Notes under the pieces: model-generated
What the model was told of the DNA's origin: nothing
Seen by the model: the letters and a program-made list of their open reading frames with translations, nothing else
Database searches by the model: none
Shown here: piece by piece, positions 6,116 to 58,536 of the stretch
Numbering within the stretch: the stretch's first letter is position 1
Layout: each line of letters begins with the position of its first letter
Translations under genes and position numbers: made by a program
Assembly: GCF_003334405.1 (NCBI RefSeq)
Contig: NZ_QOWM01000011.1
Reading direction: 5' to 3' (one strand)
From: Escherichia coli
GTDB taxonomy: Bacteria > Pseudomonadota > Gammaproteobacteria > Enterobacterales > Enterobacteriaceae
Length of the DNA: 64,000 nucleotides

Positions 6116-7147
6116 TCAACCGTCGATAAATACGTCCGCCAGGGGTTTATGGCACAACAGAAGAGATAACCCTTCCAGCTCTGCCCACACTGACTGACCG
6201 TAATCTTGTTTGAGGGTGAGTTCCGTTCGTGTCAGGAGTTGCACGGCCTGACGTAACTGCGTCTGACTTAAGCGATTTAACGCCTCGCCCATCATGCCCC
6301 GGCGGTTCTGCCATACCCGATGCTTATCAAACAACGCACGCAGTGGCGTATGGGCAGACTGGCGTTTCAGGTTAACCAGTAACAACAGTTCACGTTGTAA
6401 TGTGCGCAACAAAATAACCGGTTCGCTGCCTTCCAGACGCAGTTGCTGAAGAATATGCAATGCGCGCTTACTTTTTCCCATCAACAAAGCATCAACCCAA
6501 TGAAAAGGGGTGAAATGCGCGGCATCATTCACCGCCTGTTCAACGCGCGGTAATGTCAATTTGCCGTCTGGCCAGAGCAGCGATAAACGCTCCAGTGCCT
6601 GAGCCAGCGCCAGCAGGTTACCTTCATAACAGTAGCAGAGCACCTGATTTGCCGCGTCATCCAGTTCTAAGTTGAGCTGTTTTGCGCGCGCAGCAACCCA
6701 GCGGGGAAGCTGAGCCTGCTCCGGTGTCTGACAGGTCACCTGCACGCTGCGATTCGCAAGCGCAGTAAACCAGGCGGCATTTTCTTGCGCTTTGCTTAAT
6801 TTATTACCGCGGACGATCAACAGCAGGTCGTCATGCAGAAGTCCGGTGAGTGTGAGAAGTTGCTCATTGATCGCCGCATTCGGTCCGTTTTCTGGTAACA
6901 ACAGCAATAGCGTTTGTCGACTGGCAAACAGACTCATAGCCTGGCATAACGAAAAGATCGCATTCCAGTCAGTGTTGGGATCAATGGAAAAAGTGTGGTG
7001 TTCTTCGAATCCTTGTGCCGCAGCTACCTGACGAACAGCGTCCTGGCTTTCCTGCAATAACAGAGGATCGTTACCAAGTAAAAGATACGCCGCGCGCAGC
7101 CCTTCATTGAGCTGCGCGCGGAGTTGTTCCGGGTACAACCGAATCAT
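6116..7147 (-). CDS. holA: DNA polymerase III delta subunit
   Basis: ORF track 343 aa, recognised HolA sequence; follows lptE with 1-nt overlap. Confidence 0.92.
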
Positions 7148-7728
7148 CAGTTACCCAGCGTGGTGGAGACGCGTGCAGGCGTTGCCGGAGTATCCGTTGT
7201 GGTCGACGTCTGTTCTTCGTCGGAACGAATATCCGCAGCACGGATGCTTGGCAGCTTACGAATCAGCTGTTCGGCAGCACGGTCGTACATCTCTTTTACG
7301 ATCATGTCTTGTTCGTTATCTTTCGCTAACGCCATTTGCGGGTTATCGAAGAACGAACGGAAGACTTTGGCGCTAATCGGGTAGATATCACGGCCGGGGA
7401 TCAACACGGTCGCATTAACCGTCATGATCATCTGATACTCTGCTGTTTGACCGTTACGGAATACCGATGCGGTATCTTTCGCGATGCTCACTTTACCCAA
7501 ACGCAAGGATGGAACGTCCTTACGCGTGGTTTCTTTATCAAGCAACTCGACACCATTCAGACGTAACTGGTTACGCACCGCACGGCTTAATGGCCCGTTC
7601 GGATCGCCTGAGTCCAGGATCATGACCTTCATAGTGGAAGGAACCTGCGTGGTATCACGCAGATGCCAGCCACACCCGGCGGTGATTAACACCGCCAGAG
7701 ATAACAACAATGTTGCCAGATATCGCAC
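7147..7728 (-). CDS. lptE: LPS-assembly lipoprotein LptE
   Basis: ORF track 193 aa; lipobox LITAGC near N-terminus; directly downstream of leuS. Confidence 0.93.
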
Positions 7729-7742
7729 GCTTCCTCCCGCGC

Positions 7743-10325: not shown

Positions 10326-10559
10326 GGCAGCCAGTGGTCCTGTTTTCAATACGGCTACAAATGTAGCGTTGAGGTGGTTTTTCAGATCCGCATAGCATAG
10401 CCCAAACGTCCGCGTCAAAACAGCCTTTCGCGCACTCGACGTTGAAATGATGCCCGGATTATTCATACATTAATTTACAGAGTTTGTGGGCGTATTAGCA
10501 AAGCAAGGAACAAAGAACGTCTATTATTATAGTCAGTTAACGACCCGGGAGATGAAACG

Positions 10560-11111: not shown

Positions 11112-12095
11112 CTACAGTAAATCTTCAGTCTCACGAATTTCCTGACTGACATCTCTGGTTCCGGATGACTGAACTTTACGATACAGGTCGAGAGCCTGTC
11201 GGAGATCGACAGGTCTTCCTTCTCCGTAGTGATACATAATGGCCAGGTTATACCAGGCAGTGGCGTCATTGCATTCAGCGGCTTTCGTAAACCATTCAAA
11301 GGCAGCCTGATAATCTTTCTCAACGCCTTGTCCGTGTTTATACATATAACCGATGTTGACGTAAGCGCCGACGCTCCCCTGAGCGGCAGCCTTCAGATAC
11401 CAGTACATCGCTTGCTTATAGTCCTGGTCCACCCCTTCGCCAGCGTTATAATCCCATGCAATTTGAAACTGGGCGTGCCGATTACCCTGCTGTGCGCTTT
11501 TCAAATACCAGAATGCGGCGAGTGTCTTGTTTTGAGCAACGCCTTTTCCGTCTTCATAAAGATCGGCCAGATTGTTTTGCGCGTCACTATGGCCTTGTAA
11601 TGCAGCTTGTTTGTACCAGAAAAATGCCAGCGCATAGTCTTTTGCGACTCCGTTGCCATTTCTGTACATCCACCCAAGATTATTTTGCGCATAAGACATT
11701 CCGCTCTCCGCGGCTATCTGATACCAGACAACCGCTTCTTTATAATTGGGGGCTTCTCCACGATCCAGTGTCCAGCCAAGGGCGTTGGAAGCGAAAGTAT
11801 GGCCTTGTAGGGCAGCTTTTTTCAGCCAGAAGATGGCTTGCTCATTATCTTTATGACGGCTTTTATCCTCGGTATACTTTTGCCCTAAGGAATACTGTGC
11901 TTCACAATGACCTTGCTCAGCGGCCAGCTTCAGCCAGTAAAAGGCTTTTTCGTCGTCCGGAGAATCAATTGCGCTATCGCGATTATAATAAAACCCAACA
12001 ATATATTGAGCCTCGCAATCGCCTTTTTCAGCACGTTCGATAATCTCATCTATTGATAAATTATCGCAGCAACTTGACGTGAAAATCATTATCAT
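11112..12095 (-). CDS. ybeQ: Sel1-like repeat (SLR/TPR-like) protein YbeQ, no signal peptide
   Basis: ORF track 327 aa; repeated A..W...AA.QG...AQ..LG..Y..G.GV motifs; true start may be 2 codons downstream. Confidence 0.88.
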   Translation of the reverse strand: MIMIFTSSCCDNLSIDEIIERAEKGDCEAQYIVGFYYNRDSAIDSPDDEKAFYWLKLAAEQGHCEAQYSLGQKYTEDKSRHKDNEQAIFWLKKAALQGHTFASNALGWTLDRGEAPNYKEAVVWYQIAAESGMSYAQNNLGWMYRNGNGVAKDYALAFFWYKQAALQGHSDAQNNLADLYEDGKGVAQNKTLAAFWYLKSAQQGNRHAQFQIAWDYNAGEGVDQDYKQAMYWYLKAAAQGSVGAYVNIGYMYKHGQGVEKDYQAAFEWFTKAAECNDATAWYNLAIMYHYGEGRPVDLRQALDLYRKVQSSGTRDVSQEIRETEDLL

Positions 12096-12252
12096 TTCCT
12101 TATGGTTGCAGATAAAACATATTATATTTTTATGTGTTCCATTTTTGCGTAAGCCTTATTTTATGCGTATTATGTCGCGTCAGAAAAGTATAAATAAACG
12201 AGCCTCGCAATGCGGCTAATATTCATTTAATGAATATTTAAGGATAAATTAT

Positions 12253-12960
12253 ATGGACATGGAGTCGCAAAAAATATTGTTTGCACTTTCCACTCCGATG
12301 GAAATACGCAATGAATGCTGTTTACCTTCGCATTCATCACCCAAAATGTATTTAGGTACATGCTTTTTTGACCTTTCTTCCTCATGGGGAATTGATGACC
12401 GTGATGACCTGCTGCGCACAATTCACCGAATGATCGATAACGGTCATGCCGCTCGGTTGGCAGGGTTTTATCACCGCTGGTTTCGTTATTCGCCATGTGA
12501 ATGGCGTGACTATCTTGCTGAACTAAATGAGCAAGGTCAGGCTTATGCGCAATTTGTCGCCAGCACCGCCGAATGCTGTGGCGAAGGGGGAATCAAAGCC
12601 TGGGATTATGTCCGGATGGGTTTTTTAAGCCGAATGGGCGTACTTAATAACTGGTTGAGCGAAGAAGAAAGTCTATGGATCCAGTCGCGCATTCATCTAC
12701 GGGCTCTACGTTATTATAGTAACTGGCGGCAATACTTTGCCGGTTATACCTTTGGTCGGCAATATTGGCAGTCTCCCGAAGATGATCATCTGCCTTTATT
12801 ACGCGAATTCTTAGCGCGTAAAGAATACGACGATTCCGGCAATGATATGTTTTATCAATTATTTGCCAGTGATGATGCGTATTACCCTACCTTGTCCTGG
12901 CAACCATTGGCTTACTATTCTGCATGCCCGGAAACGCTTAAGGATATGAGCGACCTATGA
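12253..12960 (+). CDS. ybeR: DUF1266-family protein YbeR
   Basis: ORF track 235 aa; clear paralog of the ORF at 15050..15757; stop overlaps djlB start (ATGA). Confidence 0.9.
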
Positions 12961-14384
12961 AAAATTGCTGGAAGATCCTCGATATAGAGGAAACGACTGA
13001 CGTCGATATTATCCGCCGCGCTTATCTGGCGCTGTTACCGTCCTTTCATCCAGAAACCGATCCGCAGGGTTTTAAACAACTTCGTCAGGCGTATGAGGAG
13101 GCGCTACGGATTGCGCAGTCGCCTGCTAAATCTGTTTGGCAACCAGAAGAATATGAGGTAGCAGAACATGAAATTCTGCTCGCCTTTCGTGCGTTACTTG
13201 CCTCTGATAGTGAACGTTTTCTGCCCTCCGCCTGGCAGCGATTCATTCAGCAATTAAATTATTGCTCGATGGAGGAGATTGATGAATTACGCTGGTCGCT
13301 GTGCACAATCGCCATGAACACTGCCCATTTATCCTTCGAGTGCGTGGTGTTATTAGCAGAAAGATTGCGGTGGTTACAGGAGGAAAATACCGGGGAAATA
13401 GACGAAGAAGAACTGGAATCCTTTTTATATGCCATTGCGAAGGGGAATGTTTTTAACTTCCAGACCATTCTGCATCTGCCCGTTGCCGTGCAAAATGACA
13501 CCATCGATTTTTACCAAATGTTCGCTCGGATTTGGTCATCGCATCCACAATGGCTGACATTGTATTTAGCGCAACATCGCGCAGTGATTATCCCCGATGA
13601 TGCAAAACTGCACAGAAATTTACTCCGCTGGTATAGCGCAGGTCGCCTGGATATCCCCGAACTTCTGGATTACGCCCAGTCATGGCGGGAAACTGAACCT
13701 GATAATGAAGATGCGCCTTATTATGAATACGCGCAACGCGTCTATTGTGGAGAAGGCGAAAGCCTGTTGGCAGAACTTTGTGACTACTGGCGCGAGTATC
13801 CCTCCACCCAGGCGGATGCTTTAATGTTGCAATGGTGCCGTCAGCATCGGGTCGATTATTACCCATTACTGGTGATGATGATTGAAGCGCGTGATCTGGT
13901 TAACGATCAGGGAAAACCGCTACTTTATGTCCCCGGCGACAGCGCCCGTACGCGTTTTCATTTATACGAAATACTCAGCGATGAAAAACTCTCTGCGCTG
14001 GGGCGTTCACTGGTCGAGATGGTTTTGCACAAAGGACGTAAGCCGCGGATCTCACTCACGCGTGATACAGAACATACCTTATGGCCATTATATCTAGTTG
14101 CCAAACAATTAGTGCAGGCCTGCCAACCTACAGAAGAATCATTAATGCCGATTGTGAGCCGCCTTGATGCAGAAAATCGTTGTCCACTGGAAGCATTAAT
14201 TATTCGTCGATTATTAATTCAGGCGGCGAATTTTACCGAGAAGCAAACTGTTGAACCGGAGCCGCAACCGCAGCCAATGCCCGTTGACGATGGTGGGCCA
14301 GGCTGTCTGGGCATCATTAAAATTATTTTCTATATTTTTATCTTTGCTGGTTTGATAGGGAAAATACTCCATCTGTTCGGGTGA
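12957..14384 (+). CDS. djlB: J-domain-like co-chaperone DjlB (YbeS) with C-terminal hydrophobic anchor
   Basis: ORF track 475 aa; N-terminal J-like region ...[21 protein letters not shown]...; C-terminal hydrophobic tail [23 protein letters not shown]. Confidence 0.88.
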
Positions 14385-14393
14385 CAGTCGACG

Positions 14394-14948
14394 TTAATGT
14401 GCGGGAAGCCCGGCAAGTAATCTTTCCGCATTTTTGTAATGTTGTTTGGCGGCCAGTTTTAACCATTTTTGAGATTCATAATGGTTAACATTAATACCTG
14501 AGCCATTTCTGTAGATCAAACCTAAAGTATATTGAGCATGAGCATACCCTTGTTCAGCTGCTTCCTTATACCAGAGAATTGCTTTACGGGTGTCGGGTTT
14601 GACCCCCAGACCTTTGAGGTAGATCCACCCCAGTTTACTTTGCGCGCGTGGATTTTCCTGTTCCGCTGATTGCTCATACCAGTATCTCGCCTGTGTATAA
14701 TCCAGTGGTTTACCGTCGCTACCATGAAGATAAAATTCTCCAAGGCGATATTGCGACGTTGAGTGACCATGAATCGCGGAAAGCTCCGTGGCTGCCGTGG
14801 TGAATGGAAGACTGCCCGGTGAGCTTAAATAATCAAAGGCATAATTCACCATGGCTTTATCACGCAACGTCGTTTTCTTGGGTTGGCTAATACAGGTAAT
14901 TGCTGCAACTATAAAAATTGCGAATATATACATTAATTTTTTATTCAT
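14394..14948 (-). CDS. ybeT: Sel1-like repeat protein YbeT with N-terminal signal/possible lipoprotein signal
   Basis: ORF track 184 aa; N-terminus [19 protein letters not shown]...; Sel1-like repeats. Confidence 0.88.
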
Positions 14949-15049
14949 GTGTGAATGCTTCGATTTTCTTTTTATTTTGAAAGCGTCAAGTTTATACTCA
15001 TCAATAATAAAAAAGTAGTCAGTTAATGCACTTAAGGGATTATTAACAA

Positions 15050-15757
15050 ATGAATAAGGAAGAACAATATCTTCTTTTTGCGCTTTCTGCGCCCATGGAA
15101 ATACTTAATCAGGGTTGCAAACCCGCGCATGACTCGCCAAAAATGTATACTGGGATAAAAGAATTCGAGCTCTCATCATCCTGGGGAATAAATAATCGTG
15201 ATGATTTAATTCAGACTATTTATCAGATGACTGATGATGGTCATGCCAATGATTTAGCTGGCTTATATCTGACATGGCATCGCTCTTCCCCTGAAGAGTG
15301 GAAAGCATTAATTGCTGGTGGCTCGGAGAGAGGGTTGATTTATACCCAATTCGTTGCCCAAACCGCTATGTGCTGTGGGGAAGGGGGAATCAAAGCCTGG
15401 GATTATGTTCGAATGGGGTTTCTGTCACGGGTCGGTGTGCTCAACAAGTGGCTGACGGAAGAAGAGAGTTTATGGCTGCAATCGCGCGTCTATGTACGAG
15501 CTCACCATTACTATCACAGCTGGATGCACTATTTTTCCGCCTATTCGTTAGGACGTCTCTACTGGCAATCTTCTCAGTGCGAAGACAACACTTCGCTACG
15601 CGAGGCGCTAACCCTGTACAAATACGATAGCGCCGGGAGTCGTATGTTCGAAGAGCTGGCAGCGGGAAGCGATCGTTTCTATGCCACGCTTCCCTGGCAG
15701 CCATTAACTGTCCAGTCTGAATGCCCGGTAACGCTTAAGGATGTGAGCGACCTATGA
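15050..15757 (+). CDS. ybeU: DUF1266-family protein YbeU (paralog of YbeR)
   Basis: ORF track 235 aa; aligns along its length with YbeR; stop overlaps djlC start. Confidence 0.9.
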
Positions 15758-17205
15758 AAACATGTTGGCAAATCCTCGAAATTGAAAGCACGACGCAAAT
15801 AGACATTATCCGCCAGGCTTATCTTGCTCGCTTACCGTTGTGTCATCCCGAAACCGATCCGCAAGGGTTTAAAGCATTACGCCAGGCCTATGAAGAGGCC
15901 CTGCGACTGGCGGTAAATCCTGTCGAGGAAGCAGATGATGAAGAAAAAGATGCTGCCGCTGAACATGAAATACTACGTGCATTCAGGACATTACTGGATT
16001 CAGAAAGTGATCGTTTTCAGCCTTCCGCCTGGCAGAAATTTATTCAGCAATTAAATACCTGGAACATGGAGGATGTCGATCAATTACGCTGGCCGCTGTG
16101 TGCAATCGCCATAGAAGCGCGATATCTTTCATTAAATTGTGCTTCTTTGCTGGCAGAGCGTTTGAACTGGCATTCATTTAATGACAGCGAAGGAATGGAT
16201 GAGGAAGAAAGGGAGGCTTTTCTTGAGGCCATTCAGGCTGGTGATTGTTTCGATTTCCTTAGCCTTCTGGAATATCCCATTGCGTTGCAGAACCAGACTG
16301 TTGAGTATTACTTCGCGCTGGAACGTTGCTGCCGTTACCATCCTGACTATGTCACTGCGTTTTTGGCGATGGAAGGTCCGTGGTTAATTCCTGATGATGC
16401 AAAGTTACATCGCAAACTGTTGCGCTGGTACAGCTCGGTGCAAACAGGTATGGCGGAACTCATTCCTGTCGCTCAACAGTGGCAAACGGAAGAACCAGAA
16501 AGCGAAGATGCCCGGTATTACTTGTGTGCACAACGTTTGTACTGCGGCGAGGGGGAAAGCCTGCTTGCCGATCTCTGCGCGTACTGGGAAAGTTACCCAT
16601 CTACACAAGCTGATAATTTGTTGTTGCAGTGGAGCAAGCGTCATTGCCCGGATTATTTCGCGTTATTAGTGATGGTTATCGAAGCGCGGAGCATGGTAGA
16701 TGCGCAAGGTCAACCGCTGAAATATGTTCCTGGTGAGAGCGCCCGGACGCGGCTGTTATGGGCGGAGATTTTACATAGCGGAAAATTATCGCCGTTAGGT
16801 CAATCGTTTATTGAGTCGTTATTCTTCAAGCGCAAAGCATGGGCGTGGTGGAAATCGAGAGTCGGTAGCGAGACAGAGCAAGATTCACCGTTCCTGGATT
16901 TGTATCGGGTAGCGGAACAGGTAGTACTTGAAGCGTTTCCGAAACAAGAGATGCTGGCCCGTCTTAATACAAGGCTGGAAGGCGGAGATGCTCATCCATT
17001 AGAGGCCATTGTCACCCGGATGCTTTTGACGAAAGTGAAACTCGAGCCGGAGGATGAAGATGTCGATGAGCCAACACCTGAAAATCATGAAGAAAAAAAT
17101 GATGAGGGTGAAAAACCACAGAGCATTACCAGCATTATCAAAATCAGTTTAACGGTGCTGGTGATAGGTTATGCTCTCGGCAAAATCGCGATGTTGTTTA
17201 GCTGA
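15754..17205 (+). CDS. djlC: J-domain-like co-chaperone DjlC (YbeV) with C-terminal hydrophobic anchor
   Basis: ORF track 483 aa; N-terminus nearly identical in pattern to DjlB ([10 protein letters not shown]); C-terminal hydrophobic segment. Confidence 0.88.
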
Positions 17206-17226
17206 CGATGTGTTTTTTGCGCCGAT

Positions 17227-17257
17227 GCCGGATGCAGCGTTTACGCCGCATCCGGCA
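17227..17257. repeat. REP (repetitive extragenic palindrome) element
   Basis: gccggatgcagcgtttacgccgcatccggca imperfect palindrome between convergent djlC and hscC. Confidence 0.7.
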
Positions 17258-17264
17258 GCCGTGT

Positions 17265-18935
17265 TTATGGGATCTCAATGGCTAAATAATCGCTCGCCCG
17301 CCGCCGAACTTCATCCACGCGGGCCATATCGTTTGACTGCAACGCCGCATCAAAATCGGTGATCACCCGGCCGATCTCTTCTCGCTCGTCACCCAGCGCC
17401 CGCGCCCACAACTCTTCCAGTTTGGCTTTAAAGGTGCGATTGATGAGCATATCGCGCGGATAAATTTTCAATGCGGATAACCGCGTCCGACTCTCTTCAA
17501 TCTGCTGCGCGCTCAATGTTACCGGGCTGTGGTTAATCACTCTGGACTTAACGCTGCCGTCTTCCAGAAGCACGTCAACTTCAAGCAACCCGTTGATATC
17601 ATAACTAAAGCGAATATCAATCGACTGATAAGCCCCGGTTTTCTTCAACGGCACATCGAAGGATTCCACCAGAATGTTGTTTTTAACTTTGTGGTTTTCT
17701 CCCTGATAGACGTTAACCGTAATTGAATCCTGTTCCGGGTGCATGGTTGAATAAGTTTCTACACGCGACACGGGCACAGTGGTGTTTCGTTCAATAATCG
17801 GCGAGAAAATGCCGGAAACGCCCTGGCGGTTAACTTCAACGCCCAACGAGTAAGGGCAAATATCAGTGAGGATTACCTCTTCAATATCTTCACTGCGTAA
17901 GCGGCAGGCGGCCTGGATTGCTGCGCCCAGCGCGACAATGGTGCTCGGATCGTAACTTTGATACGGTAATTTGCCAAACAGACGCACGGCGATTCGCTGC
18001 ACCAGCGGCATTTGTGACGCGCCGCCAACCAGCACCAGACTGTCGATTTGACTCGGCTTCAGACGCGCATCGCGCAACGCCTGTTCAATCGGCACTCGCA
18101 AGCGATTGAGCAGCGGCAACCACAAATCTTCCAGTTCGTTCTCGTAAAATTCGCATTCCCGCGTTTCTTCCTGATACTGCCAGCGAATGTGCAATGGCGA
18201 TTGATTGCTACATTTTGCCGCTTCCACACAGGCGTACAAGGCTGCCAGTTCACTCTCGTTAAGCGTGGTCCTGGCGACATCCGCGCGTTTTAAAACCTCA
18301 TCGACCAGCATATGGGTAAAATCTTCGCCACCAAGAAAGTTGTCGCCAGCGGAGGCGTGAACTTCAATCACCGGCGTGGCGTACTCAAGCACCGTAACGT
18401 CAAACGTGCCGCCACCGAGATCAAACACCAGCGAACGGGTATTTTGTTGGGTATGCAGGCCATACGCCATCGCAGCTGCTGTGGGTTCATTAATTAAGCG
18501 TACCGCATTTAACCCGGCTAACTCCGCTGCTAAACGGGTATGCTTGCGTTGTTCATCGCTGAAATAAGCCGGAACGGAGATCACCACATCTTTAATCGGA
18601 CGTTGCAGAAATTCTTCGGCATCTTCTTTTAATGAGCGTAATACCAAAGAGGACAGTTCTGGCGCGTTAAATGTGTCGCTGCCTAACCGCCAGTTGGTAT
18701 TACTGCCCATTGCACGTTTAAATAACGCTGCCGTTTTATCCGGATGCGAAGTACGCCGTGATACAGCCGGTTTTCCGACTAAAATATGATTATTTTCATC
18801 CATGCTAATTATGGATGGTGTTAAATATTCACCGAACTTATTTGGAATTAATTGCGCGGCACCGTCTTTCCAGACGGCAATTAAACTATTGGTAGTACCG
18901 AGATCGATACCAATGGCGAGTTCTGCATTATCCAT
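17265..18935 (-). CDS. hscC: Hsp70-family chaperone HscC
   Basis: ORF track 556 aa; Hsp70 ATPase signatures (IGIDLGTTNS, DLGGGTFD); length matches HscC. Confidence 0.93.
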   Translation of the reverse strand: MDNAELAIGIDLGTTNSLIAVWKDGAAQLIPNKFGEYLTPSIISMDENNHILVGKPAVSRRTSHPDKTAALFKRAMGSNTNWRLGSDTFNAPELSSLVLRSLKEDAEEFLQRPIKDVVISVPAYFSDEQRKHTRLAAELAGLNAVRLINEPTAAAMAYGLHTQQNTRSLVFDLGGGTFDVTVLEYATPVIEVHASAGDNFLGGEDFTHMLVDEVLKRADVARTTLNESELAALYACVEAAKCSNQSPLHIRWQYQEETRECEFYENELEDLWLPLLNRLRVPIEQALRDARLKPSQIDSLVLVGGASQMPLVQRIAVRLFGKLPYQSYDPSTIVALGAAIQAACRLRSEDIEEVILTDICPYSLGVEVNRQGVSGIFSPIIERNTTVPVSRVETYSTMHPEQDSITVNVYQGENHKVKNNILVESFDVPLKKTGAYQSIDIRFSYDINGLLEVDVLLEDGSVKSRVINHSPVTLSAQQIEESRTRLSALKIYPRDMLINRTFKAKLEELWARALGDEREEIGRVITDFDAALQSNDMARVDEVRRRASDYLAIEIP

Positions 18936-20071: not shown

Positions 20072-20797
20072 TTAATGCAGGATTTTCGCGAGGAAGTCTT
20101 TTGCGCGGTCCGATTTCGGATCATCGAAGAAAGCGTCTTTCGGCGAGTCTTCGACAATTTTACCCTCGTCCATAAAGATCACCCGATTCGCCACTTTACG
20201 GGCAAAGCCCATTTCGTGGGTCACCACCATCATGGTCATTCCTTCGTTCGCCAGTTCCACCATCACGTCCAGTACTTCGTTGATCATCTCCGGATCCAGC
20301 GCCGATGTCGGTTCGTCAAACAGCATCGCAATAGGATCCATACACAACGCGCGAGCGATTGCCACACGCTGCTGCTGACCGCCGGAAAGCTGCGCCGGAA
20401 ACTTATTGGCGTGAGCAGAAAGCCCGACACGCTCCAGCAGTTTCAGGGCTTTTTCACGAGCCGGCGCTTTATCGCGTTTAAGCACTTTCACCTGCGCCAG
20501 GGTCAGGTTTTCGATAATCGACAGATGAGGGAACAGCTCGAAATGCTGGAATACCATCCCGACGCGGGAACGCAGCTTTGCCAGATCGGTTTTCTTGTCG
20601 TTAACCACGATACCATCGACGGTGATTTCACCTTGCTGCACCGGTTCGAGGCCGTTGACGGTTTTAATCAGCGTTGATTTGCCGGAACCAGACGGGCCGC
20701 AAACCACCACCACTTCGCCTTTTTTCACTTCGGTTGAGCAGTCGGTCAGCACCTGAAAGTGACCATACCATTTTGAAACATTTTTCAGGGTAATCAT
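20072..20797 (-). CDS. gltL: Glutamate/aspartate ABC transporter ATP-binding protein
   Basis: ORF track 241 aa; Walker [13 protein letters not shown] signature LSGGQQQR. Confidence 0.93.
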
Positions 20798-21471
20798 TAT
20801 GCTGTCCTTCTTTTCAAGTAGCTGACCAACAACGACGCGCTAAGACTAATAACGAAATAAACAAATCCGGCAAACAGGATCATCTCAACCTGCGTACCAT
20901 CACGCTCACCAATGGTTGAGGCGGTACGGAAGAAATCGGCCAGGGATAACACATACACCAGTGAGGTATCCTGGAACAGTACGATGCCCTGAGTGAGCAG
21001 CAGCGGCACCATCGCGCGGAACGCCTGCGGCAGAATAATCAGTTTCATCGACTGCCAGTGAGTCATTCCCAACGCCAGCGCGGCGCTCGATTGACCACGA
21101 GAAATACTTTGAATACCAGCACGGATAATCTCTGAATAGTAGGCCGCTTCAAACATCGAAAACGCCACCATCGCCGAAATTAAACGGATATCATTTTTTG
21201 GCGATAATCCCAGCACGTTTTGCAGAAAACCCGGCACGATCAGGTAAAACCACAGCAAAACCATAACTAAAGGAATCGAGCGGAATACGTTAACGTAGGC
21301 TTTGGCAAACCACGCCACGGGCGCAAAGCTGGATAAACGCATCACCGCCAGCATCGTGCCCCACAAAATACCAATCACTACCGCCGTGACGGTGATTTTC
21401 AGGGTGATCACCAGCCCGTCGAGCAGATATGGCAGGGAAGGGACAATGGAACTCCAGTCAAACTCGTACAT
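20797..21471 (-). CDS. gltK: Glutamate/aspartate ABC transporter permease
   Basis: ORF track 224 aa, polar amino-acid permease; 1-nt overlap with gltL. Confidence 0.92.
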
Positions 21472-22211
21472 TATTTGCCCCCCATGTTGCCAGGCAGGCG
21501 AACTTTACGTTCAACCAGCGTCATCACCAGCATGATAAAAGCGTTAATCAACACATACGCCAGCGTAATGGCGGTAAACGACTCCCAGGCATGGGCTGAG
21601 TAATCGAGCAATTTACCCGCCTGCGCCGCCATATCCACCAGACCGATAGTCGAGGCGATGGCGGAGTTTTTCACCAGGTTCATCATCTCTGAGGTCATCG
21701 GCGGGACGATAACGCGATAAGCATTAGGCAGCAGTACGTATCGATAAGCCTGCGGTAGCGTCAGGCCCATCGCCAGCGCGGCATTTTTTTGCCCTCGCGG
21801 CAGCGACTGAATCGCGGCGCGTACCTGTTCGCAAACACGGGCGGCGGTAAACAGCCCCAGGCAGAGCATGGATGAAAGGAAAAACTGAATATTGGGATCC
21901 AGCTCGGCCTTAAACCACATGCCGATTTTCTCCGGCAGCAGCTCCGGGATCACCAGATACCAGGTAAAGAATTGCACAATCAACGGCACGTTGCGGAACA
22001 GTTCGACATACAACGTACCCAGACCAGAGAGAAAACGGTTTGGAACGGTACGTAAAATGCCGAAAAATGAACCGACGAGGAAAGCGATAATCCAGGCGCA
22101 GATCGACAAAGCGATCGTCACCTGAAAACCACTCCAGATCCAACCAAGATAGGTGGTGTTGCCGAACGGGGCTTGTTGTAAAAAAATACCCCAGTTCCAG
22201 TCTATAGACAT
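21471..22211 (-). CDS. gltJ: Glutamate/aspartate ABC transporter permease
   Basis: ORF track 246 aa; 1-nt overlap with gltK. Confidence 0.92.
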
Positions 22212-26216: not shown

Positions 26217-26684
26217 TTATTCTTTCTCGGCAATGTACGGATCCTCATAGCCCAGAGCAAGCATAATCTCTGTTTCGAGGGCTTCCATTTCTTCTGCTTC
26301 GTCATCTTCGATGTGATCGTAACCTAACAAATGCAGACTGCCGTGCACCACCATATGCGCCCAGTGCGCCTCCAGTGGTTTGCCTTGCTCCTGAGCTTCC
26401 TTCTCAACCACCTGACGGCAGATAACCAGATCGCCCAGTAGCGACATTTCCATGCCAGGCGGCACTTCAAACGGGAAGGAGAGCACGTTGGTCGGCTTAT
26501 CCTTACCGCGATAGGTCAGATTCAGACTGTGGCTTTCGGCGGTATCGACCACGCGAATCGTCACTTCCGATTCTTCCTGAAACTGCGGGATCACCGCATT
26601 CAGCCATGTCTGAAACTGGCTCTCTTCCGGTAACCCGGAATTATCTTCACATGCCAGTTGTAAATCGAGGATCACCTGACTCAT
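26217..26684 (-). CDS. ybeY: Endoribonuclease YbeY (rRNA maturation)
   Basis: ORF track 155 aa; [11 protein letters not shown] metal-binding motif. Confidence 0.94.
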
Positions 26685-30772: not shown

Positions 30773-30847
30773 TGGCTGGGGTACGAGGATTCGAACCTCG
30801 GAATGCCGGAATCAGAATCCGGTGCCTTACCGCTTGGCGATACCCCA
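30773..30847 (-). tRNA. glnV: tRNA-Gln (anticodon CUG); glnV/glnX type
   Basis: 75 nt; revcomp TGGGGTATCGCCAAGCGGTAAGGCACCGGATTCTGATTCCGG...CCCCAGCCA; anticodon loop TTCTGAT. Only one CUG copy present, so glnV versus glnX is ambiguous. Confidence 0.93.
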
Positions 30848-30894
30848 ACAAATTGGTTTTGAATTTGCCGAACATATTCGACACATTCAGAATT

Positions 30895-30971
30895 TGGTGG
30901 CTACGACGGGATTCGAACCTGTGACCCCATCATTATGAGTGATGTGCTCTAACCAACTGAGCTACGTAGCC
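30895..30971 (-). tRNA. metU: tRNA-Met elongator (anticodon CAU)
   Basis: 77 nt; revcomp GGCTACGTAGCTCAGTTGGTTAGAGCACATCACTCATAATGATGGGGTCACAGGTTCGAATCCCGTCGTAGCCACCA. Confidence 0.93.
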
Positions 30972-30986
30972 AGATTGTTTCTTCGA

Positions 30987-31061
30987 TGGCTGGGGTACCT
31001 GGATTCGAACCAGGGAATGCCGGTATCAAAAACCGGTGCCTTACCGCTTGGCGATACCCCA
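30987..31061 (-). tRNA. glnU: tRNA-Gln (anticodon UUG); glnU/glnW type
   Basis: 75 nt; anticodon loop TTTTGAT in revcomp; only one UUG copy present, so glnU versus glnW is ambiguous. Confidence 0.93.
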
Positions 31062-31084
31062 TCCGTACAACGCTTTCTGGTGAA

Positions 31085-31169
31085 TGGTGCGGGAGGCGAG
31101 ACTTGAACTCGCACACCTTGCGGCGCCAGAACCTAAATCTGGTGCGTCTACCAATTTCGCCACTCCCGC
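31085..31169 (-). tRNA. leuW: tRNA-Leu (anticodon UAG)
   Basis: 85 nt with long variable arm; revcomp GCGGGAGTGGCGAAATTGGTAGACGCACCAGATTTAGGTTCTGG... Confidence 0.93.
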
Positions 31170-31178
31170 AAAAAAAGA

Positions 31179-31255
31179 TGGTGGCTACGACGGGATTCGA
31201 ACCTGTGACCCCATCATTATGAGTGATGTGCTCTAACCAACTGAGCTACGTAGCC
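31179..31255 (-). tRNA. metT: tRNA-Met elongator (anticodon CAU)
   Basis: 77 nt; identical in sequence to the tRNA at 30895..30971. Confidence 0.93.
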
Positions 31256-40012: not shown

Positions 40013-40060
40013 TCTGCTTTATGCCTGATGCGACGCTTGAGCGTCGCATCCAACAATGAC

Positions 40061-40094
40061 AAGCGGTGGAGATCTTCTCTGCCGCTTTTTTTTT
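40061..40094 (+). terminator. Intrinsic terminator of nagE
   Basis: Hairpin agcgg...ccgct (40062-40086) followed by a T9 run; preceded by a REP-like palindrome at 40025-40050. Confidence 0.7.
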
Positions 40095-40214
40095 CATCAA
40101 TCATCCCCATAATCCTTGTTAGATTATCAATTTTAAAAAACTAACAGTTGTCAGCCTGTCCCGCTTATAAGATCATACGCCGTTATACGTTGTTTACGCT
40201 TTGAGGAATCCACG

Positions 40215-44321: not shown

Positions 44322-44768
44322 TTATTTGCCTTCGTGCGCATGTTCATCTTCGCGGCAATCGCCTTCGGCACAGTGACCGTAAAGATAGAGACTGTGGTTA
44401 GTCAGGCGAATGCCATGTTTTGCGGCAATTTCACGCTGACGCGCTTCGATGGAATCATCACTAAATTCGATAACCTTGCCGCAGTCGAGGCAGATCAGGT
44501 GATCGTGGTGATGTTGCTGTGTCAGTTCAAATACGGATTTACCGCCTTCAAAATTGTGGCGGGTGACGATACCAGCGTCGTCAAACTGGTTCAGTACGCG
44601 ATATACCGTAGCCAGACCAATTTCTTCACCCATATCGATCAGACGTTTGTATAAATCTTCCGCACTGACGTGATGGTTGTCCGGCTCCTGAAGAACTTCC
44701 AGGATTTTTAAACGAGGAAGCGTTACTTTCAGGCCAGCTTTCTTTAGGGCGGTATTGTTATCAGTCAT
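44322..44768 (-). CDS. fur: Ferric uptake regulator
   Basis: ORF track 148 aa, recognised Fur sequence (HHHDHLICLDCGKVIEF). Confidence 0.96.
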   Translation of the reverse strand: MTDNNTALKKAGLKVTLPRLKILEVLQEPDNHHVSAEDLYKRLIDMGEEIGLATVYRVLNQFDDAGIVTRHNFEGGKSVFELTQQHHHDHLICLDCGKVIEFSDDSIEARQREIAAKHGIRLTNHSLYLYGHCAEGDCREDEHAHEGK

Positions 44769-50068: not shown

Positions 50069-50827
50069 TTATTGCGTGAATGTTTCTTTCATTTGATACT
50101 GCATTTCCCAGAGTTCAGTAAGCGAAATAACTTTTCTTGTTCTTGCTTCTTCACTTTGTACCCATAAGAAAGGGTAGAACGTGAAGGCTTCCGTTGCCGA
50201 TAATTTTATTACGTCTTCTCGCCATTGCTGCCATCGTACATTTTCATAGAAGGTATCTAAATCACCGGATAATGCCCACTGAAGAAACTCAGAATATCCA
50301 ACTTCCAGACTTTCCCAATTCAGCGTATCTGGCGCAAAATAATAAACGCAGCCAGTATCTTCCCCAAGATCGCCACCATTAAGAGCAAAAATTCCCCCTG
50401 CGACATCGTCAGCGATGGGTAAAGCCCGCACGCCTGCGAATTCAGGGCGTTGTGTCCAACTTACTGGATCTCGTGGCAACCGGGGGTGACCAGATCCTGC
50501 TATGCGTAACCAACCATTATCAATCAGCAGACCTCCGGAGCCATAGACAAGCGCACCCATCGGTGATTTTGTTGTCACCTGTAATTGATAAAGTGCGGTT
50601 TCGGCTAAATCTTTATTAACCGGTAAGAGTTCGGTATGGTTTGTGGCGTCTTTTAACCAGTTCTGGATTATTGGCCAGGCTGAATCTTCAGTATTTACTA
50701 ACTGATTCATTTCACGCATCGCTACTTGCTCCTTGTGTGCTACGGTGTCATTTATGATGAGGAATTGTATGGAACATTTTTTAAATATTAAGTTCCTTAT
50801 ATTTGAATAAAAAATGACTTTATCCAT
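50069..50827 (-). CDS. ybfG: YbfG-like DUF2625-family protein, reading frame intact over 252 codons
   Basis: ORF track 252 aa; family assignment from memory. I recall this locus as a pseudogene in K-12, so intactness here should be checked. Confidence 0.65.
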   Translation of the reverse strand: MDKVIFYSNIRNLIFKKCSIQFLIINDTVAHKEQVAMREMNQLVNTEDSAWPIIQNWLKDATNHTELLPVNKDLAETALYQLQVTTKSPMGALVYGSGGLLIDNGWLRIAGSGHPRLPRDPVSWTQRPEFAGVRALPIADDVAGGIFALNGGDLGEDTGCVYYFAPDTLNWESLEVGYSEFLQWALSGDLDTFYENVRWQQWREDVIKLSATEAFTFYPFLWVQSEEARTRKVISLTELWEMQYQMKETFTQ

Positions 50828-50842
50828 ACATTGCCACTTTTT

Positions 50843-50986
50843 TCAAAGCATAAACCGATACCCAATACCGGTTTCAGTAATAAAATGGCGAGGCCGGGCC
50901 GGATCCTGTTCCAGTTTTTGTCGCAGATGCCCCATATAATTACGCAAATAGTTGCTGTGTTCGATCGCGTTTAGACCCTACATCTG
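50843..50986 (-). pseudogene. ybfI: Fragment homologous to the 3' end of kdpE (ybfI-like gene remnant)
   Basis: About 90% nucleotide identity to 55178-55320 (the last ~48 codons of kdpE), e.g. tcaaagcataaaccgata[c/g]ccaataccggtttcagtaat[a/g]aaatggcg; no intact ORF. Confidence 0.65.
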
Positions 50987-51067: not shown

Positions 51068-52387
51068 TTAACCGTGTTTATTTTTCAGTTCAAAGCGTGG
51101 TGATACCAGACCATACAGTGTCCAACCAAGGAAGGTCACGATGGAACCGTACAGCATGGCTTCTTCCCCGGATGAGTACAGCGCATAAAAGCTATACATC
51201 GCGCCAACAAAAGCAACAAAGTTTGCAACTTTCGCTTTTGAGGGGGGCACATTAGCGACCTTCTGAATAATGACTAATGCCGCCATTGACAGAATATACG
51301 GAATGATATTGGTCACCACGGCCAGGTTAACCAGCACGTTGAACTGACTGTTTAGCGACGGGCTAATGGTCATCAGTGCCAATCCACTCTGAATAATCAC
51401 AATGGTCAACATTCCCTGCACCGGTGCATCCACTTTGGTTACACGGGAGAAAATTTTAGGGAAGTAGCCTTCATCAGATGAAGATTTAAACACCTGGGCA
51501 ATGGTGAACTGCCAGCCAAGTAGCGAACCGCAGCAGGACATCACCATCAGCGCCATAATGACTTTACCCACTTCCGGCGTGAACATCTGCGCGAAGGCCA
51601 GACCAAATGGTGCCGTTGAATTTGCCAGCTCCATATTTGGCACAATCCCGGCAATCACGTTGGTGGAGACGATATAAATCACCGCCGCACCTAACGTACC
51701 GCCGAGTACCGCGATTGGCACATTACGTTCCGGGTTTTCCACTACATCAGTATTCGCACACGCAGACTCCAGACCAAGAAAAGCCCACAGCGTCATAGCG
51801 ATGGAAGAACCTACCGCACTGAAGAACGGTGCATGATGCGGATTCCAGGAATCAACGTACAGCGTCGGGCTAAACCAGAACCAGCCAATAATGCACAGAC
51901 CGACGACCGGAATAATGACCCCCCACACGGTAATGCTACTGATTTGCCCGGTAATGCGCGCACCACCAAAGTTAGCCACGGTACAAATCCACAGCACCCC
52001 GATGGTCGCAAGACCAATCTGCACTGGCGACAAACTCGCGCCGAGCAGTTCGGTGCCGTAACCAACCGCCGAAATAGCAATCGCGACGTTAGCAATCAGC
52101 AGTGAGACGCCGTAGGTATAGTTCGCCATAAAGTTACCGGATTTACCGAAAGCATACTCGGCATAACCGCCCATACCGCCTGATTTACGGCTGAACATAC
52201 CGCATTTTGCGAATGCCCATGCCAGTGCCATTGAGCCTACGGCTGTCACCAGCCAGGAGATAATTGAGATTGTCCCGACTTCGGCAAGCTTTGTCGGCAG
52301 CATGATGATACCGGAGCCCATCATGTTGACCATCGTCAGTATGGTTAACTGAACGACGCCCATTTTGTTCGATTTAGCCTGACTCAT
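51068..52387 (-). CDS. potE: Putrescine:ornithine antiporter
   Basis: ORF track 439 aa, APC-family transporter; 4-nt overlap with speF. Confidence 0.94.
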   Translation of the reverse strand: MSQAKSNKMGVVQLTILTMVNMMGSGIIMLPTKLAEVGTISIISWLVTAVGSMALAWAFAKCGMFSRKSGGMGGYAEYAFGKSGNFMANYTYGVSLLIANVAIAISAVGYGTELLGASLSPVQIGLATIGVLWICTVANFGGARITGQISSITVWGVIIPVVGLCIIGWFWFSPTLYVDSWNPHHAPFFSAVGSSIAMTLWAFLGLESACANTDVVENPERNVPIAVLGGTLGAAVIYIVSTNVIAGIVPNMELANSTAPFGLAFAQMFTPEVGKVIMALMVMSCCGSLLGWQFTIAQVFKSSSDEGYFPKIFSRVTKVDAPVQGMLTIVIIQSGLALMTISPSLNSQFNVLVNLAVVTNIIPYILSMAALVIIQKVANVPPSKAKVANFVAFVGAMYSFYALYSSGEEAMLYGSIVTFLGWTLYGLVSPRFELKNKHG

Positions 52388-54839: not shown

Positions 54840-54944
54840 CTAACGGGCATTGAAGAAGTGAAAGTCGAAGCTATTGCGATGAGCAAACTTCATAATATGA
54901 GTTGTCCGCCTTATATGGGGCATAGTGCGGCTGTTATTTTCCAT
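54840..54944 (-). CDS. speFL: speF leader peptide SpeFL (34 aa, ornithine-sensing arrest peptide)
   Basis: Revcomp of 54840-54944 reads ATG GAA AAT AAC AGC CGC ACT ATG CCC CAT ATA AGG CGG ACA ACT CAT ATT ATG AAG TTT GCT CAT CGC AAT AGC TTC GAC TTT CAC TTC TTC AAT GCC CGT TAG = MENNSRTMPHIRRTTHIMKFAHRNSFDFHFFNAR; not in ORF track (too short). Confidence 0.75.
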   Translation of the reverse strand: MENNSRTMPHIRRTTHIMKFAHRNSFDFHFFNAR

Positions 54945-55115
54945 TTAATTTACCTTTCCTGATGTGAATGAAGGTGAAGATATTCTATCCAGGAAATACG
55001 GTTGAACTGTGAAGGTGATCAATAAAAAATGATCAATCTTAATTTATTTAATGATGAGCTTTTTACTCAGTAATATAAAATATTGAATTGTTATTTTTGT
55101 GTGTTGTTTAAGATA

Positions 55116-55143
55116 AAAAGCCGTATTTATTATTACGGCTTTA
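55116..55143. terminator. Terminator hairpin downstream of kdpE (end of kdp operon)
   Basis: aaagccgta-tttatta-tacggcttt with flanking A and T runs, 35 bp past the kdpE stop. Confidence 0.6.
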
Positions 55144-55177
55144 ATTAATAAAAGGCAGGCTGTATTAAAATTAATAT

Positions 55178-55855
55178 TCAAAGCATAAACCGATAGCCAA
55201 TACCGGTTTCAGTAATGAAATGGCGTGGGCGGGCGGGATCCTGTTCCAGTTTTTGTCGCAGATGTCCCATATAAATACGCAAATAGTGACTGTGTTCGAC
55301 CGCGTTTGGCCCCCACACCTGGTTAAGGAGCTGGCGCTGGGTGAGTACTTTTCCGGCATTGTTGAGCAGCACCGCCAGCAGGCGGAACTCAATTGGTGTG
55401 AGATGCACCTCTTCCTCACCCCGGTGAATCACGCGGGCGGCTAAATCGACGGTAACATCGGAAAATTTTACCAGCGGATCGGGCGCGGTGGTGGCAGAGT
55501 GGCGGCGTAATGCGACGCGCAGACGGGCCTGCAATTCGCCAATGCCAAACGGCTTACTCAGATAATCATCCGCTCCGGCATCCAGCGCGGCGATTTTGTC
55601 GCTCTCTTCGCTGCGTGCGGAAAGCACAATCACCGGCACCGCGCTCCACTGGCGCAGGTCGCGGATAAACTCAATCCCATCACCATCGGGCAGGCCGAGA
55701 TCGAGAATAATCAAATCTGGCTTACGGGTTGCCGCTTCCAGCAAGCCGCGTTGCAGCGTTTCGGCCTCAAAGACGCGCATCCCGTCGCCCTCCAGCGCCG
55801 TGCGCAGAAAGCGACGAATAGCCTGTTCATCTTCAACAATCAGAACGTTTGTCAC
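55178..55855 (-). CDS. kdpE: Response regulator KdpE (OmpR family)
   Basis: ORF track 225 aa; receiver domain ([17 protein letters not shown]) plus winged-helix domain. Confidence 0.95.
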   Translation of the reverse strand: MTNVLIVEDEQAIRRFLRTALEGDGMRVFEAETLQRGLLEAATRKPDLIILDLGLPDGDGIEFIRDLRQWSAVPVIVLSARSEESDKIAALDAGADDYLSKPFGIGELQARLRVALRRHSATTAPDPLVKFSDVTVDLAARVIHRGEEEVHLTPIEFRLLAVLLNNAGKVLTQRQLLNQVWGPNAVEHSHYLRIYMGHLRQKLEQDPARPRHFITETGIGYRFML

Positions 55856-58536
55856 ATATCCTCATGAAATTCTTCAAGTTCAGGGGCAGTTTGCTGGGGA
55901 AGTGTAACACGAAAACAGGCACCACCTTCCGGTCGGTTGAACGCGGTAATAGTGCCCCCGTGTACATCCACTATCGCCCGACAAATTGCCAGTCCAAGCC
56001 CTACCCCCGGTACTGCCGACTCTTTATTCCCGCGAGCAAACTTATCAAATATCGTCTGCTCCTGGCCTGGCGGAAGACCGGGGCCGTTATCCCAGACATC
56101 CAGTTGTAGATTTTCGCCCTCAACGTGGGCATCGATACCAATTTCGGCCTGCGCACCCGCATATTTCACCGCGTTCTCCAGCAGATTAATCAGCACCCGT
56201 TCAAAGAGTGGCCCGTCAACGTGGATTAAGGTCAGCGGTTCTGGCAGAGAAAGATTGATGGGCGACGATAAACCCGGTTCCAGCATTTGCAGCGCGCTGC
56301 CGACTACTTCTTCCAGCGTTAACCACTCTTTCTTCAAATTAAAGCCGCCGGACTGAATTCGCGCCATATCCAGTAGATTATTCACCAGTCGGGTAGTGTT
56401 CAGCACATGCTGACGGATCTCGCTGGCCTGGCGGGCGTGGGGTGATCCTTCGCTTGCCAGATCGAGCGTTAAGATTTCTGCCTGACCAAACAGCACCGTA
56501 AGCGGCGTGCGTAAATCATGCGAAAGCGCCGCCAGCAGGGCGTTGCGGATCTGTTCACGTTCGCTTGCCATCCGCGCCTGTTCTTCGCTGGCGGTTAACG
56601 TCAGCCGCTCAAGGGCATTGGCGACTAACAGCGTAAACGTCTCCAGCAGGCGCTGCTGTTCCGGGATCATCAACTGGCGCAGATTCCCCGGCTCCACCAC
56701 CACCAGCCCGTAGGTTTTCTCGCCGCTTTTTAGCGGCAAAATCTGGTACGGTACACCGGGTAACGTGTCGGTGCCCGCGCCCGCAGGCAGGCCTTTATCA
56801 AAACTCCACTGCGCGATGGCATCGTCCCACGGCGTCATTCCTTGCGGATGTGTTAACGGCTGCAATTTACCGTTGTCATCGGGCAACAACACCTGACTGC
56901 GGGCATGAAACGTGGAGGCAATAAATTGTTCGCTGGTGGCAGCGATATCCTGCGGACTGCGGCCCACCGCCAGAGCTTTCGACATTTCATATAAGTGCCG
57001 TGTGCGTTGCTCGCGGTAACGGGCTACCCGCGCCTGATAACGCACGCCAGCAGTAAGGTTCCCGATCACCAGCCCGACGGTTAACATCACCGCGAAGGTC
57101 AGCAGATATTGCACATCAGAGACGGCGAGCGTGCCGCGTGGGGCGATAAAAAAGAGATCGAAACTCACTACATTAATGACGGTGGCAACCACTGAAGGCC
57201 AGCGTCCATAAAATAGCGCCACCACCACCACGCCAAGCAGATACAGCATCACCAGGTTGGCGGCATCAAACGCCATCAGCCACTGCATGGCAATTAAGGT
57301 GATAACGGCGCATAACGCGGCGGCAACCACGCATCCCTGAATTTGTACACGCCACTTGTCTTTAAAAGAGCGGTTATCCGGCGCGTTGTTAATCGTGCGG
57401 GCGGGTGGTTCATCAAGCGCGACCAGCACCTGATCGAGATCGGGGGCGATGCGCGCCAGTCGGTCAGCAAACGTTTCCCGACGCCACCAGCGGCGCGAGG
57501 CCGGGCGACCGAGAATAATCTTGCCGAGATTATGTTCACGGGCATAACGCACTACCGCTTTCTCTTCCGCTGGATCAGAAAGTGTTGCCGTCTCCGCGCC
57601 CAGTTCCTGCGCCAGACGTAAGGCGCTGAGAATTGCCCGACGTTTTTTTTCCGGTAAGCGGTGCAGGGCAGGGGTTTCAACATACACCGCGTGCCAGACG
57701 CTACCCAGCCGTGACGCCAGCCGCGCCGCTGCGCGGACCAGTTTTTCGCTGCCGGTGTTATGGCCGATGCATAAAAGGATCGCGTCGCGCGTGTGCCACA
57801 CTTTCTCTTCGCCAGGATGCCCCCGCCAGGCGCGCATTTGCTCATCAACGCGATCGGCAGTACGGCGCAGTGCCAGTTCGCGCAGGGCGATCAGATTACC
57901 TTTGCGGAAAAAATGTTCAATGGCGCGCTCCGCCTGCCCGGCAATATAGACTTTGCCTTCTTTCAGCCGCTGGCGCAGATCGTCCGGGGGCAAGTCCACC
58001 AGCACCACGTCGTCGGCGGCATCGAAAAAAGGATCGGGCACGGTTTCCCGTACCTGAATTCCGGTGACGCCGCTGACCACATCATTCAGACTTTCCAGAT
58101 GCTGAACGTTGACGGTAGTGAAAACATCAATGCCAGCTTCCAGCAGTTCTTCGATATCCTGCCAGCGTTTGGGATGACGGGAACCTGGCGCATTACTGTG
58201 CGCCAGTTCGTCCATTAAGATCAGCGCCGGGCGGCGGGCGAGGGCGGCATCGAGATCAAACTCGCTGATATGCCGCCCACGGTACGCCTGGCGTTTTAAC
58301 GGCAGAACAGCCAGCCCTTCCAGCATGGCGGCGGTATCTTTTCGCCCGTGGGTTTCTACCACGCCAACCACAATATCCAGCCCTTGCGCCCGCAGTCGCT
58401 GGGCTTCTGCCAGCATCGCCCAGGTCTTCCCGACGCCTGCACAGGCACCGAAGAAAACTTTCAGCTTCCCCCGATGCGGCGCGGCAGTTTGTTCCAGCAG
58501 ACGATCGGGGTCGGGACGTAAGGGTTCGTTATTCAT
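55852..58536 (-). CDS. kdpD: Sensor histidine kinase KdpD
   Basis: ORF track 55852..58578; start placed at [16 protein letters not shown] (894 aa); histidine kinase and Usp-like domains. Confidence 0.93.

Follow-up and report, generated by a model that had tools for sequence, protein, structure and literature searches.

When the stop codon of one gene shares nucleotides with the start codon of the next, it has to be asked whether the overlap ties the translation of the two genes together or is a neutral trace of genome compaction. The question is raised by a stretch of 64,000 nucleotides (nt) of Escherichia coli DNA (RefSeq assembly GCF_003334405.1, contig NZ_QOWM01000011.1), called the window here, which holds eleven such overlaps. 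Two of them join a gene of the DUF1266 family (ybeR or ybeU) to a gene for a J-domain co-chaperone (djlB or djlC). With a probability of roughly 0.8 we consider the eleven overlaps to be ordinary operon junctions of the -4, -1 and -8 spacing classes (negative values denoting overlap) that would enable translational coupling, and the overlap in the ybe modules to be an old, retained feature of DUF1266 to J-protein gene pairs.

Among the 43 same-strand adjacent gene pairs of the window, 11 overlap, and this set is complete; read base by base, the shared stretch measures 1 nt at four junctions, 4 nt at five and 8 nt at two (Table 1). The sequence forms TRATG (1 nt), NTGA (4 nt) and NTGNNTRA (8 nt) define these classes, and each of the 11 junctions has the form of its class. 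The original prediction had placed all eleven overlaps exactly and had missed none. Its wording has to be corrected in that the overlaps lie within operons rather than across operons. The span that it gave, 7147-58536, contains ten of the junctions, whereas kdpF/kdpA (62854) lies beyond its end, and the genes of each pair were correctly identified, although naming them in coordinate order put the upstream gene second on the minus strand.

It had also been argued that the ATGA junction in both ybe modules supports co-translation. Taken alone this is a weak argument, because the two modules, which have a nucleotide identity of about 60% (amino-acid identity 59% for YbeR/YbeU and 50% for DjlB/DjlC), are paralogues that inherited one junction. 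The conclusion is strengthened by a comparison across species, by synonymous constraint at the junction and by a natural fusion protein. For the comparison, loci were collected from a scan of species-representative genomes with narrow peptide patterns (9 loci), from exact-protein look-ups and from a profile search of 1.8 billion proteins, which returned 1,411 DUF1266 matches; the exact-protein look-up of P0061 recovered no locus. The resulting 16 loci comprised the window, Escherichia species, Klebsiella, Salmonella, Citrobacter, four Budviciaceae and five metagenomic or read-archive contigs. All 22 junctions from a DUF1266 gene to a J-protein gene in these loci overlapped (19 at -4, two at -1 and one at -14), and the gene after DUF1266 opened with the same J-domain motif in 22 of 22 cases, down to proteins recognizable by profile similarity only. 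The overlap was kept although the GC content of the four most distant loci ranged from 34 to 56% and the length of the J-protein from about 475 to about 930 residues. That lineages with an altered junction still overlap, at -1 or -14, speaks against the ATGA tetranucleotide having persisted by inertia alone.

An N-terminal J-domain in the product of the gene after DUF1266 was confirmed by a match of Pfam DnaJ to residues 5-49 of the Pragia protein, which carries a C-terminal DUF805 domain in addition, and by DnaJ matches at loci L016 and L018. The 22 N-termini share a CW/W-x-IL-x-I...HPE-x-DP-x-GF motif. The signature tripeptide reads HPE (HPE-T/S/D/K-D/N/E-P), and not the canonical HPD, in all DjlB/DjlC-type proteins examined, including the fusion protein P0261 described below; in the window it is encoded within 12957-13100 and 15754-15900.

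Conservation at the nucleotide level points in the same direction. For pairs of codons specifying the same amino acid, synonymous identity reached 0.81 in the last ten codons of the DUF1266 gene compared with 0.53 gene-wide; this was the highest value of the gene and, when 230 windows from 13 enterobacterial DUF1266 genes were ranked, it fell in the top 0.9%. Raised synonymous constraint at the 3' end of the DUF1266 gene is expected if the ribosome-binding region of the J gene is embedded there. An AAGGA/AGGAG motif before the J start was conserved across species, and the duplexes with the anti-Shine-Dalgarno (anti-SD) sequence had calculated energies of -5.9 and -6.8 kcal/mol for djlB and djlC, respectively. 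At neither ybe junction was a terminator-like site found, and promoter-like matches were below shuffled expectation. Taken together, the comparison suggests that the overlap is an old and retained feature of DUF1266 to J-protein gene pairs, and it makes coupled translation of the two proteins likely.

The same region can form a 6-bp hairpin, CGCUUA...UGAGCG (12935-12952 and 15732-15749), which presents AGGA in its loop, 5 nt before the start of djlB or djlC. Whether conserved folding of the RNA hides the djl start was considered as well; the hairpin was invariant in 10 of 10 aligned enterobacterial junctions (RNAalifold), which without covariation is uninformative, and the idea was set aside.

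Two routes of coupling can be envisaged. A ribosome that ends translation of the upstream gene would sit on or beside the downstream start codon and could re-initiate there (termination-reinitiation); alternatively, the passage of the ribosome would unfold the mRNA where the coding sequence of the upstream gene conceals a ribosome-binding site. By either route, translation of the downstream gene would follow that of the upstream gene. That such overlaps indicate coupling, as the original prediction had it, is the accepted reading, and it is backed by published reporter tests of native overlapping E. coli pairs, four of five of which were strictly coupled. Short-spaced E. coli pairs are moreover 4.5-fold enriched for subunits of complexes, and a shared mRNA is supported in the literature for ybeZYX-lnt and, as a read-through transcript, for kdpFABC-DE.

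Within the window, coupling has been reported for uof-fur: RyhB represses translation of uof and thereby that of fur (Vecerek et al., 2007, as cited in PMC6191717 and PMC11550727). Here, the 8-nt sequence ATGACTGA ties fur translation to the 28-codon uof; an internal fur promoter within uof has also been reported. This known system corresponds to one of the 11 junctions. It is a regulatory leader-peptide arrangement and not a pair of functional proteins, and it provides no model for the other ten pairs.

To which extent the individual genes would depend on the upstream ribosome can be estimated from their start regions. An SD-like motif lies inside the upstream open reading frame (ORF) at all 11 junctions, with anti-SD energies of -3.1 to -9.5 kcal/mol (median -5.6) that are no different from those of other genes in the window. 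The motif is weak at holA (-3.7 kcal/mol) and strong at gltK (-9.3), kdpA (-9.5) and potE (-7.8), and the start region of holA (predicted opening energy 13.6 kcal/mol) is exceeded in structure by only one other in the window. By these predictions holA, kdpD, fur and ybeY, which combine a weak SD motif with a structured start, are the likeliest to depend most on the upstream ribosome, while gltK, kdpA and potE could also initiate independently. We infer that coupling operates at the junctions, with a strength that probably differs between pairs, and consider this reading probably right for most of them.

Several points weigh against this interpretation. The bioB/bioF overlap, one of the five reporter-tested E. 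coli pairs, is uncoupled, so that an overlap alone is no proof of coupling, and among the 11 pairs of the window experimental coupling has been reported only for uof-fur. That the predicted opening energy of the start region was higher in the 11 overlapped genes than in leading or well-spaced genes (median 9.3 versus 6.9 kcal/mol, p = 0.03) is consistent with coupling, but the difference rests on 11 against 36 genes and is uncorrected for coding versus intergenic composition. The 22 DUF1266 to J-protein junctions are not phylogenetically independent and represent perhaps 8 lineages; in addition, an ATGA junction is by its nature not easily lost, since a start or a stop codon would be destroyed by most changes. 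Finally, Huber et al. (2023, PMC10666635) flag both ybe pairs as 'no complex' in their supplement, and a physical interaction between YbeU and DjlC has not been reported in the literature.

It was further asked how unusual the overlaps are. At 27 of the 57 stop codons in the window a triplet resembling a start codon stands in the -1, -4 or -8 register, which is trivial by itself. Such a triplet opens the next real gene (ORFs of 148-894 amino acids) only at the 11 junctions and, in addition, at the kdpB stop treated below. Under a null model of uniform spacing, with starts from -20 to +300 nt of the upstream stop, 0.4 overlaps of these classes would be expected, against 11 in 43 pairs (p = 2e-13). 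In the genome of E. coli K-12, 707 of 2,987 unidirectional gene pairs (24%) are spaced at -8 to +6, the commonest overlaps being -4, -1 and -8, and these three spacings are enriched across prokaryotes (Brown & Wade, 2025, PMC12548453). With 14 of 43 pairs (33%) in the same range, the window does not depart from K-12 (one-sided p = 0.12), and an enrichment for short spacing over the genome was ruled out also for the range of -8 to +10 (p = 0.06).

At least eight of the 11 pairs are contained in the K-12 supplement of Huber et al. (2023), which lists lptE/holA, ybeR/djlB, ybeU/djlC, gltJ/K, gltK/L, speF/potE, kdpD/E and kdpC/D with identical distances; the genes of the window are not mentioned in the 2025 coupling review (PMC12548453). 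In spacing classes, frequency and the position of the SD motif inside the upstream ORF, the junctions agree with the published short-overlap class (Huber et al., 2019, PMC6728339; Huber et al., 2023, PMC10666635; PMC12548453) and show no structural difference from it; the five reporter-tested E. coli pairs include none from the window. The overlaps are thus ordinary, already documented E. coli operon architecture, and the observation as such is not new. For this reason it is rated of low interest: the list restates a textbook property of operons, and its practical value is as a check on correct annotation.

The strongest competing explanation is that the overlaps are neutral by-products of mutation and compaction and that the downstream genes mainly initiate at their own SD. 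NTGA overlaps arise and persist easily, because three of their four bases come with the start codon itself, and the 2025 review (PMC12548453) itself explains the abundance of -4 in this way. The uncoupled bioBF pair, the strong SD motifs at gltK, kdpA and potE and an overlap rate equal to the genomic average are all in line with it, and against these stand the strict coupling in the other four tested pairs and the excess of complex subunits among short-spaced pairs, such as those encoded by gltJKL and kdpFA. Functionally, the 11 pairs are mixed: besides complex subunits (gltJKL, kdpFA) they include a sensor and its regulator (kdpDE), an enzyme and an antiporter (speF-potE), a leader peptide (uof), suggested interactors (YbeZ-YbeY) and, in lptE-holA, functionally unrelated neighbours, which again would fit a neutral origin.

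Spacing across species is likewise divided. The median distance is -3.4 nt for KdpD followed by an OmpR-family gene and -3.4 nt for PhoH followed by YbeY (845 species), while it is +2 nt for LptE to HolA and +20.6 nt for KdpC to KdpD. The overlaps of these last two pairs, kdpC/kdpD and lptE/holA, are therefore lineage-specific, and their variable spacing agrees with the idea that an overlap comes about readily and need not be under selection in every case. In contrast, the DUF1266 to J-protein junctions remain overlapped through changes of configuration (-4, -1 and -14), and constraint on the nucleotides is raised just upstream of the J start. A neutral origin, which would concern some of the pairs and need not hold for all, is considered unlikely. 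The reading preferred here is that of ordinary junctions permitting coupling, with an old overlap in the ybe modules.

The overlaps also depend on correctly assigned start codons, the revision of which the original prediction had singled out as the result that would undo it. Such revision is largely excluded by ORF structure, by protein profiles and by the N-terminus of Fur; start codons were found to be sound for nine of the 11 genes, holA and ybeY being only loosely constrained. Nine of the 11 annotated starts are preceded by no other start codon within their ORF. kdpD and kdpA have other in-frame starts nearby upstream, which would lengthen the overlap, while candidates in the downstream direction do not occur until 42-120 nt inside the gene. 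For GltK, GltL, KdpE, KdpD, KdpA and PotE, alignment to curated NCBIfam profiles begins at residue 1-3: residues 1-224 of GltK correspond to profile positions 1-224, residues 1-225 of KdpE to positions 1-225, residues 1-894 of KdpD to positions 1-895 and residues 1-557 of KdpA to positions 1-561, residue 1 of GltL corresponds to position 1 in several ABC ATPase profiles, and residues 1-3 of PotE align to positions 1-2 of antiporter profiles.

The J-domain motif starts at residue 3-5 of DjlB and DjlC. djlB, with the motif from residue 4, has no alternative in-frame start upstream or in its first 50 codons, and the sole alternative in djlC, a TTG at +84 nt, lies within the J-domain. The Fur N-terminus MTDNNTALK is included in a K-12 N-terminomics/Ribo-RET table; of the genes looked up there, which included holA, ybeY, potE, gltK and gltL, fur alone was among the entries listed. 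holA begins with an ATG that is the first start codon of its ORF; the TIGR01128 profile aligns only from residue 21, and an alternative TTG lies 9 nt downstream. The family profile of YbeY begins only at residue 14, with an alternative GTG at +9 nt. The first residues of both proteins are unconstrained, since the profiles begin so late. These alternative starts would leave gaps of 8 nt (holA) and 5 nt (ybeY), and gaps of 5-8 nt still fall within the coupling-competent range of -8 to +10.

It is very improbable that part of the overlaps stem from misannotation, with the real downstream start a few codons later, for example at these near-cognate codons of holA or ybeY, as ATG is a better start than TTG or GTG, the ybeZ/ybeY overlap is accepted in the literature and in keeping with the cross-species median, the other nine starts are fixed at or before the annotated codon by profiles, domain boundaries or experimental N-termini, and the alternatives would in any case remain coupling-competent.

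Table 1. Stop/start overlaps in the window and the conserved 3' ends of the two DUF1266 genes.
Feature	Overlap	Sequence form	Coordinates	Strand
lptE stop (TGA) / holA start (ATG)	1 nt (7147)	TGATG	7145..7149	-
ybeR, last 10 sense codons		conserved AAGGA SD-like motif	12927..12956	+
ybeR stop / djlB start	4 nt	ATGA	12957..12960	+
ybeU, last 10 sense codons		region equivalent to that in ybeR	15724..15753	+
ybeU stop / djlC start	4 nt	ATGA	15754..15757	+
gltK stop (TAA) / gltL start	1 nt (20797)	TAATG	20795..20799	-
gltJ stop (TAA) / gltK start	1 nt (21471)	TAATG	21469..21473	-
ybeZ stop / ybeY start	4 nt	ATGA	26681..26684	-
uof stop / fur start	8 nt	ATGACTGA	44761..44768	-
speF stop / potE start	4 nt	ATGA	52384..52387	-
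kdpD stop / kdpE start (GTG)	4 nt	GTGA	55852..55855	-
kdpC stop (TAA) / kdpD start	8 nt	ATGAATAA	58529..58536	-
kdpF stop (TGA) / kdpA start	1 nt (62854)	TGATG	62852..62856	-

A twelfth overlap was considered at kdpB/kdpC (59101-59113), where a GTGA at the kdpB stop opens a 194-amino-acid ORF consisting of kdpC and four additional codons. This start was rejected because the annotated ATG of kdpC has a canonical GAGG 7 nt upstream, overlapping the kdpB stop; the annotated start is probably right, and the upstream GTG is unlikely to be used.

The window is a segment of the E. coli chromosome that extends from rlpA as far as the beginning of an RHS element (rhsC), and every annotated gene was mapped onto it by exact or end-anchored matching, with the RefSeq annotation of E. 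coli strain 300709 as reference. A tested 4 kb (12000-16000) were 100% identical to several complete E. coli chromosomes. This ybe region is not universal in the species: 4,428 of 5,426 complete E. coli genomes gave any match to it, and at least 80% of the stretch was present in 3,691. The main difference between the window and strain 300709 is the tRNA cluster 3' of ubiF (30773-31255), with five genes (Gln-Met-Gln-Leu-Met) compared with seven (Gln-Gln-Met-Gln-Gln-Leu-Met), which makes the window 221 nt shorter at this site and looks like a copy-number polymorphism of tandem tRNA-Gln genes. The sole opposite-strand overlap in the window is formed by the 3' end of nagE and a convergent 40-codon ORF (a RefSeq hypothetical protein, 39982-40104, minus strand), which share 31 nt (39982-40012). 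Between a lipoprotein gene and potE (50069-50977) lie a DUF2625 gene, whose ORF comprises 252 codons compared with 216 annotated, and a piece of a winged-helix regulator, 135 nt long, which carries a pseudogene annotation.

What the ybe overlap might serve is suggested by the surrounding genes. The locus at 11112-18935 is a duplicated module, in which a Sel1/TPR gene (ybeQ, ybeT) lies on one strand and the DUF1266 and J-protein genes on the other, followed by a convergent hscC. An HSP70 gene convergent to the pair was found in the window (hscC), in Citrobacter (L014) and at two metagenomic loci (L015 and L018). Salmonella has no TPR gene between its two modules, and Budviciaceae and metagenomic relatives (loci including L008-L011, L015 and L018) have a single module with a J-protein of about 900-930 amino acids.

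The protein P0261 (L019, 233-1726; 497 amino acids), from a read-archive assembly, has a J-domain of the Djl type at residues 1-48 and a DUF1266 domain at residues 322-462 as well as TPR repeats, and in this way fuses three elements that E. coli encodes as neighbours, djlB/C, ybeQ/T and ybeR/U. No Hsp70 gene was present within 4 kb downstream of its gene. A scan of 40 longer DUF1266 proteins, taken from P0164-P0263, identified TPR repeats as a recurrent fusion partner (6-9 proteins). Six proteins of the same set carry a copper amine oxidase N-terminal domain, and some contain two copies of DUF1266, for example P0164. The AlphaFold model of YbeU (predicted local distance difference test, pLDDT, 94) had no meaningful match among solved structures. 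Membership in an anti-phage defence system was considered and rejected: YbeU, DjlC, HscC and YbeT had no matches to PADLOC defence profiles, and the sole match of YbeQ, to PtuA (E = 1e-4), was judged spurious.

The genes djlB, djlC and hscC of the window are those of the specialised HscC-DjlB/DjlC Hsp70 system; hscC mutants and djlB djlC mutants have been reported to be sensitive to Cd2+. According to the account of Kluck et al. (2002) given in PMC8215388, DjlC stimulates the ATPase of HscC, and both DjlB and DjlC belong to the tail-anchored membrane proteins. That review describes DjlB and DjlC as HscC co-chaperones without mention of YbeR/YbeU or YbeQ/YbeT, and the conserved linkage to these genes and the fusion protein lie outside the system as described. 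The nearest precedent is cbpA-cbpM (PMC8215388), a J-domain co-chaperone and a small dedicated modulator encoded in one operon and conserved in gamma-proteobacteria. The likeness is one of gene arrangement, with the order reversed: the modulator CbpM follows its J-protein, whereas DUF1266 precedes it here. That DUF1266 proteins are modulators of DjlB/DjlC is a conjecture.

A functional linkage of DUF1266 and J-protein is well supported by the conserved gene order and the fusion. The overlap most likely ties synthesis of the DUF1266 protein to that of its HscC-type J co-chaperone, and the two probably act jointly, possibly with the neighbouring TPR/Sel1 protein. More specifically, YbeR and YbeU may be dedicated partners of DjlB and DjlC, synthesised stoichiometrically with them, and may form with YbeQ/YbeT and HscC a four-component Hsp70 system, in which the overlap would fix the ratio or permit co-translational assembly; we put forward this proposal tentatively, at slightly less than even odds.

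The new point offered by the locus is a modest lead: the gene comparisons suggest DUF1266 as a conserved, tightly co-encoded partner of HscC-type J-proteins. In the literature searched, the term DUF1266 was found in a single paper. Of the three Hsp70s of E. coli, HscC is understood least, and which clients it serves is not known. If the proposal is true, two kinds of component of the HscC system, DUF1266 and Sel1/TPR proteins, would have gone unnoticed, and if they are obligatory partners, they would be an obvious place to seek the substrate specificity of HscC. A function would then also be given to the DUF1266 family, with its more than 1,400 detectable relatives.

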